The notes under the pieces are model-generated. The model did not search any database and was not told the DNA's origin. It saw only the letters and a list, made by a program, of their open reading frames with translations. Of a DNA stretch of 50,389 nt, positions 10,583 through 26,197 are shown one piece after another. Made by a program: the position numbers and the translations under genes. The stretch is from the IMG/VR virus record IMGVR_UViG_3300044878_000071, positions 1 to 50,389 of that record, one strand, 5' to 3'. The first letter of the stretch is position 1. Each line of letters opens with the position of its first letter. This DNA is from a virus. Taxonomy: Duplodnaviria; Caudoviricetes.

Positions 10583-11170
10583 ATGTCACTTTTAAAGGAA
10601 TGCGAACAGGCTTGTCTTGAGGCTGTCGGGGCGGATCGATTTGCGGTGCTTAAGGCTTCCGCAGAGCTATGGGTGAAGGATATCCAAGCCGATAATCGGG
10701 AGCCAATCCGATGCCTGGATATTCCTGAATTGGCAATTGCAATTCGCGCAGCCAGGATACATGGCGATAGCGCGTATGACGCGGCTCGAGAATACCTTGG
10801 CGCGGTAGCAGATCTGGTATTTCCACCGTCCCCAGCTCTGCCTTACAGCCCAGCCAAAGGAAAAAAATACGAAACGCCAAAGCGGCCAGGCTTCGTGTAT
10901 GTGTTAACCAACCCTTCGCTTGATGGGATGGTGAAGGTCGGAATGACAACCACCTCTGTCGAGCGACGAGCCAAGCAGCTATCTCAGTCGACCTCGATCC
11001 CAACTCAGTTCGAAATACATGCCAGCTTCGAAAGCGATGACCCCTCAGCTGATGGGCAGAAGGTTCACCTAGCTCTCCAGGATCACCGAGTACCTTCCAG
11101 TGAGTTCTTCATGGTGTCTGCCGCTAAGGCCGCTGAAATGTGCGCGCAGGTTATCGGGGGTGCTCAGTGA
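10583..11170 (+). CDS. T5orf172/MUG113-type GIY-YIG domain protein
   Basis: GFVYVLTN..MVKVGMT....RAKQL...H..L...EFF. Confidence 0.8.
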   Translation: MSLLKECEQACLEAVGADRFAVLKASAELWVKDIQADNREPIRCLDIPELAIAIRAARIHGDSAYDAAREYLGAVADLVFPPSPALPYSPAKGKKYETPKRPGFVYVLTNPSLDGMVKVGMTTTSVERRAKQLSQSTSIPTQFEIHASFESDDPSADGQKVHLALQDHRVPSSEFFMVSAAKAAEMCAQVIGGAQ

Positions 11171-21960: not shown

Positions 21961-22485
21961 ATGAAAAACATGGATCTGGATGCAATTGCAGGGCTGTCGC
22001 ACTCGACTTTGCGAAATTACATTCTGCCGGGGCTTGATAGCTCTCTGCTGGGGGCAACAACGCGGATATTCACCAATACCCGCGAAAGCAGCGGGATGAT
22101 CACGCCACACAGCCACCGCTTCGACTTCCAGTGCTTGGTGATGCGCGGATCGGTGGTGAACACCATTTACGATGTCGATGAATCCGGTGATGCCTACATG
22201 ATGTTGTCACTGCGATACATGGGCGAGCCTGGCGCATACGAAAAGCTGCAGGGGGTCGACGGCCTGTTCAGCGCGAGGAAGGCCACCTACGAGGCGGGGG
22301 AGTGGTACGGGATGCGGCATGACGAGATTCATTCGATCAGCTTCTCGCGTGATGCCGTGGTGCTGTTCATTGAAGGCGTCCGGGTTACTGACACCTCCGT
22401 GTACCTTGAGCCGTTTGTGCGCGGCGAGGTGATCCCGACAATGAACACTGAGCCATGGATGTTCGCCAAGGAGGCAGGTCAATGA
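21961..22485 (+). CDS. Cupin-fold hypothetical protein
   Basis: HSHRFDF...HDEIHSI metal-binding pattern. Confidence 0.6.
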   Translation: MKNMDLDAIAGLSHSTLRNYILPGLDSSLLGATTRIFTNTRESSGMITPHSHRFDFQCLVMRGSVVNTIYDVDESGDAYMMLSLRYMGEPGAYEKLQGVDGLFSARKATYEAGEWYGMRHDEIHSISFSRDAVVLFIEGVRVTDTSVYLEPFVRGEVIPTMNTEPWMFAKEAGQ

Positions 22486-23027
22486 TCTATCGCAGCGTAA
22501 TCGCAGCAGTCGTCCGGGCACTGGCAGCGGAAACCATGAGCGGCACCGGTGGCCAGGACTTCGAGCCGAAGGTGCAGGCGGCCAAGCAGAAGGGGGCGAT
22601 TGTCGGGAAGGATGCGGCGCTGCTCGTTGACTGCATGCTGTTCAGCCGGCTGCACAAGAACCTGAGTGCGCCGCACTGGCTCGCACTGGTGGCCAAGTTC
22701 TCGACGCATACCGACCGTAAGCACGACGCCATCAAGGAGTTGACGAGAGCGGTCAGATCGCCAGCGCCTGAGCAGTTCCGCAAGTGCGCCGTAGTGACCT
22801 GGGCAATCCCAAAGCTGCCAGGCGCAGAAGGGAAGCGCAGCGTGAACACCCTGCAGGCCAAGTGGTACGAAATGGACAACTGGAGCGATGACCCGGCGCC
22901 GATCAAGACCCAGGAGCGCTGGCGGCGTGATATCCGCAAGGCGTTAGAGCGGCAGGTAGATGAGGCTTTATCGGAGGCTCAGGTGATTCTCGACAATGAA
23001 GGCCTTTTGCTTGCAATGGTCTCTTGA
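22482..23027 (+). CDS. Late-gene regulator (Q/AlpA-like antiterminator)
   Basis: 181 aa at the Q position before the late promoter, terminator and holin; C-terminal TQERWRRDIRKAL helix. Confidence 0.65.
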   Translation: MIYRSVIAAVVRALAAETMSGTGGQDFEPKVQAAKQKGAIVGKDAALLVDCMLFSRLHKNLSAPHWLALVAKFSTHTDRKHDAIKELTRAVRSPAPEQFRKCAVVTWAIPKLPGAEGKRSVNTLQAKWYEMDNWSDDPAPIKTQERWRRDIRKALERQVDEALSEAQVILDNEGLLLAMVS

Positions 23028-23053
23028 CAGGGACTGAGCCGGTGAGCCATTCT
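23024..23053 (+). promoter_or_regulatory. Late promoter (pR'-like)
   Basis: TTGACA at 23024, CATTCT at 23048; -35 lies inside an 18-bp motif. Confidence 0.55.
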
Positions 23054-23059
23054 ATGTCC

Positions 23060-23405
23060 ATCCTGCGGTAATTGCGGATCAGGTAGATGCAATAGGGTCT
23101 CTTGCGAGGGACTGAAAAGATCAACCAACGCCACCGACGCGGATAAAACCGCCAGCCCGCACACGCGGAATCGTCTACATCGGAATGCCAGCTCGATCGA
23201 CAGGAAGCGCTCACCCCTCGCGGAATGTTGATTGAGCTGGCACCCCAATGCAGATGAGACAAGCCCGGAAGAACCGTAGCGGAAGCCGGCCAACTTCGCA
23301 GGGATAGCAGTCAGCGTGGGGACTGAAGGGAAGCGCCACGACAGCGGCCTGAAAGGGTTGCCGTCTGCATCAATCACAGAGCCCGGCCGTTGCGTCGGGC
23401 TTTCT
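23060..23405 (+). ncRNA. Structured GGA-rich late-leader RNA
   Basis: 10 GGA in 23141-23331, long G-U-containing stems, ends at an intrinsic terminator. Confidence 0.6.
23378..23405 (+). terminator. Intrinsic terminator (tR'-like)
   Basis: AGCCCGGC...GTCGGGCT followed by T-rich tail. Confidence 0.7.
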
Positions 23406-23491
23406 CGTTTTCGGCCTTTGTGCATCCCTTAATCGCTGCGGCGGGGCACTGCATGAGAGCCGGATCTAATTCAGCCCCGAGGGGCCAGAGA

Positions 23492-23821
23492 ATGCGCCCC
23501 ATGAACGAAAGCCCTGACAACCTGTCGCGCCTGATCGCGTGGATGAGCGTCAACTCACCGATGCTCTACGCCGCCGCTCTGTCGTGCTGGATCGCCTTCT
23601 TGCGCGTTATGTACAACCGCGGCGGGTGGCGCCAGTCGATCCTTGAGGCTGCATTGTGCGGCGCGATCACGGCCGGGGCATTCCCGCTGCTGGAATACCT
23701 GGGCCTGCCGCTGAACCTTGCGGCTGCGCTGGGGGCAATCATCGGCACGCTGGGCGTGAAGAAAATCGTTTCCATGGCCGAGCAATACGCCGACCTCAAA
23801 TTCCCGGGAAGAGGGCAATGA
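23492..23821 (+). CDS. Holin, lambda S family, with dual-start motif
   Basis: Three TM segments; Met-Arg-Pro-Met start (23492/23501); IAFLRVMY..LEAALCG..IGTLGVKK. Confidence 0.85.
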   Translation: MRPMNESPDNLSRLIAWMSVNSPMLYAAALSCWIAFLRVMYNRGGWRQSILEAALCGAITAGAFPLLEYLGLPLNLAAALGAIIGTLGVKKIVSMAEQYADLKFPGRGQ

Positions 23822-25735: not shown

Positions 25736-26197
25736 ATGGCAGCTCTGAACACTGAGGTGAAGGCCTTTATCGTTCAAGCGTTGGCCTGCTTCGATACCCC
25801 TTCTCAAGTGGCGGAGTCCGTCAAGCGTGAATTCGGCATTGATGTAACGCGCCAGCAGGTAGAAGCGCACGACCCAACAAAGCGCTGCAGCAAGACGCTG
25901 GCAAAGCGCTGGGTGACCCTGTTCGAAGATACCCGTGCGCGCTTCCGCGAAGAGACGGCAGAGATCCCGATCGCCAACCGAGCGTTCCGCCTCCGCGCCA
26001 TGAATCGATTCGTGGAGAAGGCCGAGACCATGAAGAACATCGGCCTGGCCATGCAGATCCTGGAGCAGGCTGCCAAGGAAGTCGGCGACGTGTACGTCAA
26101 CCGGCAGACCAAGAATGAAAACCCACACGACAATCTGGCGCCCACTCGGGTGCAGGTCGACGTAGTGGACGCGAGGAAGACTGATGCCGAGCCTTAA
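25736..26197 (+). CDS. Terminase small subunit (DUF2280-like)
   Basis: FIVQALACFDTPSQVA..LEQAAKEVG; directly before TerL. Confidence 0.85.
   Translation: MAALNTEVKAFIVQALACFDTPSQVAESVKREFGIDVTRQQVEAHDPTKRCSKTLAKRWVTLFEDTRARFREETAEIPIANRAFRLRAMNRFVEKAETMKNIGLAMQILEQAAKEVGDVYVNRQTKNENPHDNLAPTRVQVDVVDARKTDAEP

Follow-up and report, generated by a model that had tools for sequence, protein, structure and literature searches.

A conserved C-rich hairpin loop in the late-operon leader of a temperate Pseudomonas phage may pair with ribosome-binding sites of early genes

Introduction

Leader RNAs made from phage late promoters can be regulatory. In Shiga-toxin coliphages, StxS arises by termination at tR' and is processed to a stable small RNA (sRNA) that acts by base pairing (PMC7547250). 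Here we analysed a phage sequence of 50,389 nucleotides (IMG/VR record IMGVR_UViG_3300044878_000071; Duplodnaviria, Caudoviricetes), whose full length is called the window, and concentrated on positions 23060-23405, a stretch which is the late-operon leader of a temperate lambda-like Pseudomonas phage. An initial annotation of this DNA had placed a structured leader RNA after a late promoter and ahead of a terminator, had pointed out that pR'-tR' leaders are made constitutively, and had proposed that this one titrates host proteins of the Rsm/Csr family. Gene order, terminator and fold bear out the structured late leader, and StxS is a precedent for a regulatory role; the Rsm/Csr mechanism is the part that found no support. 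The leader has the look of an RNA that regulates by base pairing rather than of a sponge for proteins.

The locus resembles StxS and the lambda pR'-tR' leader ('6S' RNA) in that an RNA from a late promoter ends at a terminator overridden by Q, and in the gene order antiterminator, leader, terminator and lysis genes. It differs from them in having no sequence or Rfam relationship, in its Pseudomonas host, in the AlpA-like predicted fold of its antiterminator, and in a leader of ~345 nt that is modular and has a swappable cassette and a tRNA slot; the seed proposed here lies in a C-rich apical loop and would be directed at ribosome-binding sites. The Pas sRNA genes of E. coli lambdoid prophages lie near Q and adjoin the holin/lysozyme operon, and tRNA genes are frequent neighbours (bioRxiv 10.64898/2026.05.13.724894). 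Their sequences are unrelated to the leader studied here, and Pas RNAs are of the Hfq type, with single-stranded seeds and enterobacterial hosts. In the c4 system of P1/P7 and the CI system of P4, which are phage immunity and antisense RNAs, an RNA is cut from an operon leader, a tRNA-like closing stem serves RNase P, and the loops pair with ribosome-binding or other target sites of phage genes; our leader has no Rfam match, and the targets proposed for it share a Shine-Dalgarno (SD) variant instead of being dedicated sites.

For the antiterminator, the best fold match is AlpA of P. aeruginosa. At its promoter, PalpB, the binding element lies between the -35 and -10 elements, a -10-like pause element lies at -1 to +5, and AlpA bypasses a downstream intrinsic terminator (PMC9371919); the sections of that article available to us describe no structured-RNA function.

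Results and discussion

A conserved hairpin presents a nearly invariant C-rich loop

The leader consists of a 5' stem-loop, a palindromic hairpin, two G+C hairpins, an 89-nt hairpin and a swappable cassette (Table 1). Homologous loci (numbered with the prefix L) were gathered through the antiterminator protein (20 loci) and through a hairpin pattern (24 loci), and a loose pattern applied to metagenomes gave 56 loci, in 7 of which the hairpin was confirmed by a covariance model. Some parts of the sequence were preset by the patterns used for searching, and the resulting set is of low diversity; because the loose pattern yielded no divergent copies, covariation stays thin. Scans of 185,579 bacterial species genomes with the exact hairpin pattern and with patterns of the antiterminator protein gave no match, and a phage collection gave a single partial match, MT121966. 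Four of 24 public runs were compared with the window; all four consisted of contigs of relatives, two of them labelled 'probably DNA', and they carried no information on transcription, RNA ends or strand. Homologous antiterminator proteins do occur in named Pseudomonas genomes.

The 89-nt hairpin folds with -45.5 kcal/mol (z-score -6.8). Its 17-bp stem (23186-23202/23226-23242) with two G-U pairs, which had first been read from the letters, was reproduced by the fold and by the alignment columns, and the GGAA (23203-23206)/GGAA (23222-23225) internal loop that this stem closes is also present. Mean column identity among 24 distinct copies was 95%. The hairpin was 69-99% identical to the window copy even where the antiterminator protein was 43-54% identical, and it was also conserved where the holin was replaced or just 75-83% identical. 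Over the 720 cells of the 24 copies, 99.4% were paired; three pairs were changed on both sides, the apical stem covaries, and the covariation score of 0.085, compared with 0.048±0.004 in shuffles, was reached by 0 of 500 shuffles.

Three G-U pairs of the hairpin are invariant, and each of the five positions that vary on one side alone keeps its pairing through G-U. The covariance model scored 113 bits on the + strand and 50 bits on the - strand. These substitution types appear to fit an RNA of the + strand; because folding energy alone does not tell the strands apart, the case for this strand depends on the kinds of substitution seen in a set of low diversity.

The nine-nucleotide apical loop CUCACCCCU was unchanged in 23 of the 24 distinct copies, with a predicted probability of being unpaired (P_unpaired) of 1.00. 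In two loci, L015 and L016, a 33-nt mini-hairpin replaces the large one; these leaders have no large hairpin, no cassette and no GGA at all, yet a UCCACCCCU loop is kept, again with P_unpaired of 1.00. We propose from this pattern that the part under selection is the apical loop CUCACCCCU.

Two further candidates were rejected or set aside. A coding frame on the minus strand across the hairpin is open in most loci but is anywhere from 48 to 332 aa long, is shifted by a 1-nt indel in L009, L010 and L013, and the open reading frames (ORFs) of the window there have no PHROG match. Pairing in cis between the loop and the SD of the holin was set aside, as the CGAGGGG match did not covary with the CCCCUCG/CCCCUGG variants of the loop flank.

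The loop complements the Shine-Dalgarno sequence of many early genes

The complement of the loop, GGGGUG(A), is the SD of many early genes. The loop CUCACCCCU is the exact complement of AGGGGUGA(G) and pairs with AGGGGUGA through eight Watson-Crick pairs, and the 3' end of 16S rRNA would pair with the AGGGGUGA SD via one wobble. On the + strand of the window GGGGTG occurs 11 times, always between 1446 and 21951, and eight of these occurrences lie 4-8 nt before a start codon; the carriers include the replication-initiator gene at 11167 and the gene at 21961. Against second- and third-order Markov expectations, GGGGTG was found 7 times in the left arm (1.0-1.4 expected), 10 times in the early region (3.1-3.7) and 0 times in the 27-kb late region (2.8-3.3), where it is the sole absent GGGGNN hexamer besides GGGGGG. 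Late structural genes use GGAG/GGAGG, and early and left-arm genes often use (A)GGGGUG(A). The two parts of this one phage genome (1-23000 versus 23500-50389) thus have a class-specific dialect of ribosome-binding sites.

The same distribution was seen in the window together with 15 loci, with 56 GGGGTG upstream (37 in SD position) and 9 downstream (3 in SD position). In 20 of 20 loci, either the antiterminator gene itself (11 loci) or the gene abutting its start (9 loci) has a GGGGTG SD, a pattern that spans four different upstream gene arrangements. The 5' region of the antiterminator gene reads aauaucAGGGGUGAuagAUG in 12/22 cases, and one type of this region is named by the sequence aauaucAGGGGUGAuag. 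The predicted duplex between the loop and the region before 21961 has -14.9 kcal/mol. MT121966, which is without the loop hairpin and is the sole comparator, has 4 SD-like sites among 29. In that genome (MT121966.1, 19226-19319) five GGGGTG with a spacing of ~20 nt stand just upstream of 'replication protein P' and look like origin iterons.

The leader lies behind a Q/AlpA-like antiterminator

The 181-aa protein encoded directly upstream of the leader was modelled with AF2 (pLDDT 80). VIA-align matched the model to the AlpA chains 7xya_G/7xyb_G with Z 12.7/11.8 over 137-141 residues (best alignment: Z 12.7, 137 residues, rmsd 3.8, sequence identity 11%) and to the Q-lambda chains 7ubn_Q/7ubm_Q with Z 7.8/5.1, the next, unrelated rows following from Z 4.0 downward; the Foldseek probability for AlpA was 0.99. 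Sequence methods gave nothing for this protein, and at the level of hidden Markov models it matched no solved chain. In six sister contigs the antiterminator slot holds a 109-124-aa protein with a Pfam Phage_antitermQ domain (35.9 bits, cut-off 26), which also matches PHROG 79 'anti-termination protein Q-like'. The PHROG 3412 protein has 411 homologues at E<=0.001, and in the best 120 of these every organism-named one comes from Pseudomonas. Going by its modelled fold and the proteins that replace it, the PHROG 3412 protein is a Q/AlpA-type antiterminator, an assignment that would give this family of 'unknown function' a function. The homologues in this best 120 are annotated as hypothetical or 'phage-like protein' throughout, and some antiterminator subtypes carry an insertion of ~45 residues.

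The locus has two hallmarks of a Q-type late leader, a Q-family gene directly upstream and an intrinsic terminator that separates the late genes from the putative promoter. A terminator stands 3' of the hairpin in 25 of 26 hairpin-bearing loci, and the exception, L024, is truncated. By analogy with PalpB, transcription would start at A23060, with CATCCT as a pause element likewise at -1 to +5; the binding element, too, is transferred here from the described promoter. ATCCTG is nearly invariant at the start region in 16 aligned leaders. In loci with different antiterminator subtypes the similarity begins at 23057/23058; the spacer between -35 and -10 changes with the subtype, and the ATCCTG downstream of it stays constant.

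A 19-bp imperfect palindrome, GTCYCT-N4-AGRGAC, lies over the -35 and again at +37. The upstream copy overlaps the -35 in PF06530-type loci as well. The second copy is present in all 16 aligned leaders, in many of them as the reverse complement AGTCCCTCGCAAGAGACC; because it occurs in both orientations, it suggests either a dyad-symmetric protein site on DNA or a hairpin whose orientation does not matter. A CA-rich, apparently unstructured segment, AAAAGAUCAACCAACGCCACCGAC, follows at 23115-23138 and is conserved whichever of the two antiterminator types the leader goes with.

A tentative model: a leader RNA that masks early ribosome-binding sites

From the observed anatomy, conservation, complementarity and gene context, we infer the following course of events. 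RNA polymerase would start at ~23060, make a structured RNA of ~345 nt and stop at the intrinsic terminator, and polymerase modified by the antiterminator would read on into the holin and structural genes. The terminated leader would accumulate like StxS, or it would act in cis on early read-through transcripts. In either form, pairing of its loop with G-tract ribosome-binding sites could make both the early genes and the antiterminator less well translated, and this would set a threshold for late-gene expression. We favour this masking of ribosome-binding sites by the leader, yet hold it tentatively, at somewhat less than an even chance.

Several observations weigh against it. A consensus promoter scan called no sigma-70 promoter at the leader, and the minus strand of the hairpin folds about as well (z-score -5.3) as the plus strand. 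A mechanism that involves only the loop leaves the near-invariance of both stem strands unexplained. The complementarity between loop and SD was found after the fact, and any SD-like sequence is partly complementary to any loop that resembles the anti-SD. The loci are related, so that 20/20 and 56 versus 9 are non-independent counts, and the depletion in the late region, 0 versus about 3 expected, is marginal (P~0.05). At automatically picked start codons a duplex of -8 kcal/mol or stronger was predicted at 9/36 early and left-arm starts and at 2/29 late starts, a weak energy contrast, as such picks overlook many of the true starts.

A more specific device, which we regard as rather unlikely, would be a threshold and immunity system in which a loop that mimics the anti-SD holds down a temporal class of genes sharing the AGGGGUGA SD variant. 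The leader would be made from the late promoter with or without the antiterminator, and the G-for-A variant AGGGGUGA would pair perfectly with the loop and only via wobble with 16S rRNA. Genes with the SD variant, those of the resident prophage as well as those of incoming relatives, would be held down until early mRNA outruns the leader, and late genes would avoid the motif. To our knowledge, and on literature searches that were not aimed at it directly, no phage RNA that reads an SD code shared by a whole class of genes has been described to date.

If the masking model is true, Pseudomonas phages from the environment and from plants would join the Shiga-toxin coliphages in making a regulator out of the by-product RNA of Q-type antitermination, as in the StxS idea. 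The mode of action would differ, with a conserved loop resembling the anti-SD that is matched to an SD variant marking the antiterminator as well as early genes. Should the ordinary part alone be correct, the locus is a well-documented Q-type leader, and there is no more need for the Rsm idea.

A swappable cassette and tRNA genes between hairpin and terminator

The long-range stem that the initial annotation had seen (23248-23256/23362-23370) was found as the closing helix in the consensus fold of six homologues. The cassette that it closes in the window, type A, is shared with L004, L007, L009, L013 and L020; its consensus fold has 37 pairs, one of them compensatory, and it contains five GGA, the GGAA at 23281 being a tetraloop closed by C-G. 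Other loci carry type B, the L006/L017 type or further modules in this place. Types B and L006/L017 have a common four-way junction with 8 compensatory pairs among 31, and type A has the same outline. In this related family the GG of CCAGGAUAC pairs with the CC of GCCUGG, and the helix covaries (CCAGG/CCUGG, CCCGG/CCGGG, CACGG/CCGUG). The 3' strand of the closing stem, C[AG]TCTGCA, is the complement of the last bases of the hairpin. It was present in 20 of 25 loci although the cassettes it flanks are not homologous, so that the stem of 8-9 bp forms a closing helix that is conserved while its contents are unrelated.

In 8 of 27 loci (L005, L008, L011, L018, L020, L028, L030 and L033) tRNA genes, of the kinds Asn-GTT, Thr-TGT, Ser-TGA and one Val-like, lie between the hairpin and the terminator. 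Because they are located upstream of the terminator, they would be made without antitermination. The slot seems to accommodate stable RNAs that are transcribed from the late promoter, and as such it would be a platform both for tRNAs and for a covarying four-way-junction RNA that has no Rfam family.

These features speak for an alternative which is nearly as likely as the masking of ribosome-binding sites and which we consider quite possible, though below an even chance: that the leader acts in cis or as a carrier, with no target in trans. The hairpins would stabilize the late transcript and the RNAs embedded in it and direct their processing, the closing stem resembling a tRNA acceptor for RNase P or an rRNA stalk for RNase III, and the C-rich loop being a determinant for a protein or for processing. 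The tRNA-Asn of L008 begins within the hairpin, its 5' end overlapping the last 2 nt, and the closing-stem sequence is often followed by A and CCA/UCA-like tails. Each isolated cassette folds with the closing stem formed, the cassette family has the 8 compensatory pairs among 31 given above, and MT121966 (L104, MT121966.1) retains a diverged type-A-like cassette before its terminator without the large hairpin. Such a role leaves unexplained the invariance of the nine-nucleotide loop, its retention in the cassette-free L015 and L016, and its match to the antiterminator SD. In addition, ARAGORN called no tRNA in the window, in line with what had first been noted for the leader, and the thermodynamic z-score of the type A cassette, just -1.4, is not unusual.

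Two observations on the cassette slot were made in passing. In the cultured Pseudomonas phage MT121966.1 (23360-23640) the late leader has two terminators with the cassette between them, and its Pc helix covaries with that of the window (GCGGCCU/GGGUUGC versus GAGACCU/GGGUCUC). In L043 (8341-8580) and L097 the slot is filled by a 79-aa ORF (MSHRMRCKMICHEV...) with a terminator-like hairpin before it.

Switch-like and DNA-level roles

The remaining explanations, a riboswitch-like switch, a role of the DNA itself and an Rsm/Csr sponge, are less likely than either the masking of ribosome-binding sites or the role in cis. A riboswitch- or attenuator-like element, in which a ligand or factor on the cassette tunes termination besides the antiterminator, seems improbable to us. 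Alternative pairings can be read from the sequence, as AUGCAGAUG (23248-23256) can pair with the 5' strand of the hairpin, CGUCUACAU (from 23172), or with the near-repeat CGUCUGCAU (from 23362), and the cassette is a multi-helix junction closed by a stem like the P1 of riboswitches. In 13 of 20 loci, 8-11 nt separate the 3' strand of the closing stem from the terminator stem, and the distance is similar in MT121966. On the other side, tRNAs, ORFs or modules put 77-412 nt between the two in the other 7 of 20 loci, and inspection gave no antiterminator pairing with either strand of the terminator. Moreover, the cassette can give way to tRNA genes, the terminator of a Q-type system has to be constitutive, and no Rfam riboswitch matched.

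Equally improbable is that the inverted repeats act as DNA, either as protein-binding sites or as recombination joints for the mosaic modules. The 19-bp palindrome at -35 and +37, in both orientations among loci, and the equal folding of the hairpin on both strands would be expected in that case, and the boundaries of modules lie exactly at the hairpin ends, L014, L020 and L022 matching just 23169-23257. The invariant G-U pairs and the five one-sided positions, in contrast, pair only in the + strand RNA and would be C-A mismatches in a cruciform or on the other strand, and the difference in model scores between strands and the covariation of the apical stem likewise argue for RNA. For the short palindrome alone the DNA-level reading may hold.

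GGA motifs and the Rsm/Csr sponge

All ten GGA motifs on which the sponge idea had been built are at the positions given for them (23141, 23167, 23182, 23203, 23222, 23267, 23281, 23302, 23320 and 23329), and seven are GGAA as claimed; two further GGA, at 23076 and 23109, lie within 23060-23405. The reported lack of TCC holds for 23100-23380, a single TCC being found at 23061. As for the lack of coding capacity on the plus strand, ORFs of at least 30 aa that overlap the leader are just a 38-aa one and a TTG-extended holin frame. The 12 GGA and 1 TCC per 346 nt compare with a window mean of 4.9±2.4 GGA, and at least 10 GGA with at most 1 TCC occurred in 0.4% of sliding windows. The leader, which is T-poor (15.6% T), has the largest GGA-over-TCC skew anywhere in the window. 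In dinucleotide-preserving shuffles of the leader the excess of GGA was modest (12 versus 8.1±2.0, P=0.046); the same shuffles gave 5.0±1.7 for TCC (1 observed, P=0.016) and 2.3±1.3 for GGAA (7 observed, P=0.003). GGA is the commonest trinucleotide of the leader, tied with AGC, CGG, GCC and GCG.

In the ensemble fold at least one G is predicted to be paired in 9 of 12 GGA, and both G's are mostly unpaired at 23203 and 23222 (the internal loop) and at 23329. The motifs stand mostly at stem ends before A-rich junctions, in the GGAA tetraloop and in the purine-purine internal loop; in the fold of the window copy no leader GGA lies in a small apical (hexa)loop. Those at 23141 and 23167 form stem ends of the two small hairpins with their G's paired (P_unpaired <=0.01), and the G's of 23267 and 23302 are residues of consensus helices. 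The GGA of the internal loop are the most variable part of the hairpin, the 5' one being kept in 21/24 copies and the 3' one in 11/24. Between hairpin and terminator the number of GGA varied from 0 to 16 across 25 loci, with 0-1 in L008, L010, L018, L019 and L033 and 2 in others, six of the 25 loci being counted as GGA-poor, and the cassette of MT121966 retains 2/5. The GGA motifs are thus not conserved in homologous leaders, those of L015 and L016 having none; the initial annotation had itself named such an outcome as refuting its proposal.

Rfam gave no gathering-level hit in the window and no Rsm/Csr model at E<=10 in 22800-23700; at E<=10 the leader region had four chance-level hits and nothing else, neither a riboswitch nor a C4 antisense RNA. 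RF00166 (PrrB_RsmZ) gave nothing at E<=10 in the record, and 14 control genomes, which included no Pseudomonas positive control, were also without a hit above the cut-off. The GacA box has the motif TGTAAG-N6-CTTACA. Two three-mismatch matches to it were found in the window (13704 and 23502), compared with 6.9±2.8 by chance, and none upstream of the leader. In open-access literature searched by keyword, neither an Rsm sponge encoded by a phage nor the present leader RNA was the subject of any paper.

The leader shares with RsmX/RsmY/RsmZ and CsrB a GGA-rich non-coding RNA, an end at an intrinsic terminator and a host genus, Pseudomonas, with Gac/Rsm; it differs from them in that its GGA are mostly helical and not conserved, with no covariance-model match and no GacA box. 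A sponge for RsmA/RsmE (CsrA family) that shifts host exopolysaccharide or biofilm output is the least probable explanation we considered: the skew, the GGAA excess, the 4-6 GGA in each of cassette types A, B and L006, and a CAGGGAU at 23299 that we take to resemble high-affinity CsrA sites speak for it, and the borderline GGA excess, the absence of GGA from small apical loops, the G's placed in covarying helices and the GGA-poor or GGA-free leaders in the same place speak against it.

Genome setting and neighbouring genes

The record looks complete at 50,389 bp, and the organism-named homologues of its proteins are from Pseudomonas (syringae, savastanoi, putida, reactans and others). The genes and elements around the leader are listed in Table 1.

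Table 1 Features of the late leader and of the genes around it (window coordinates)
Feature	Position	Strand	Remarks
Exonuclease	20438-21571		gene around the leader
RusA	21568-21957		gene around the leader
PHROG 8313 protein	21961-22485		stop overlaps the start of the antiterminator gene
Antiterminator gene	22482-23027	+	181 aa; PHROG 3412 match ('unknown function'); predicted Q/AlpA-like fold
Imperfect palindrome GGTCTCT-TGAC-AGGGACT	23019-23037		overlaps putative -35 TTGACA (23024-23029); read from sequence
Putative -10 CATTCT	23048-23053		
Candidate -10-like pause element CATCCT	23059-23064	+	at -1 to +5 of the putative start
5' stem-loop	23060-23079	+	consensus fold of 16 leaders: 6 pairs, one changed on both sides
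Second palindrome copy GGGTCTCTTGCGAGGGACT	23096-23114		carries the GGA at 23109
Two small G+C hairpins, GCGG-AUAAAA-CCGC and CCGC-ACAC-GCGG	23139-23168	+	from the fold
89-nt hairpin	23170-23258	+	17-bp stem, purine internal loop, 3-bp apical stem
Apical loop CUCACCCCU, 9 nt	23210-23218	+	resembles the 16S anti-Shine-Dalgarno
Type A cassette, four-way junction	23248-23370	+	closed by stem 23248-23256/23362-23370
Intrinsic terminator, tR'-like	23378-23412	+	10-bp stem, 6-nt loop, T-rich tail; predicted terminator proper at 23378-23403
Holin, Phage_holin_3_1, lambda-S-type	23492-23821	+	Pfam 83 bits; first late gene

Between the PHROG 3412 gene and the holin there are 465 non-coding bases. A second holin-like gene follows 3' of the holin, and then terminase at 26184. 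The holin has a dual start, M-R-P-M, with ATG at 23492 and 23501 as in lambda S, and its SD sits in a CCCC-GA-GGGG hairpin ahead of the start (23470-23503), which we liken to the lambda sdi structure that sets the ratio of holin to antiholin. In L003, L007, L012, L017, L020 and L030 a gene of ~100 aa beginning MMKR... is inserted after the first terminator and ahead of the holin. Its N-terminus resembles a signal peptide, it has a downstream terminator of its own, and it has the appearance of a moron.

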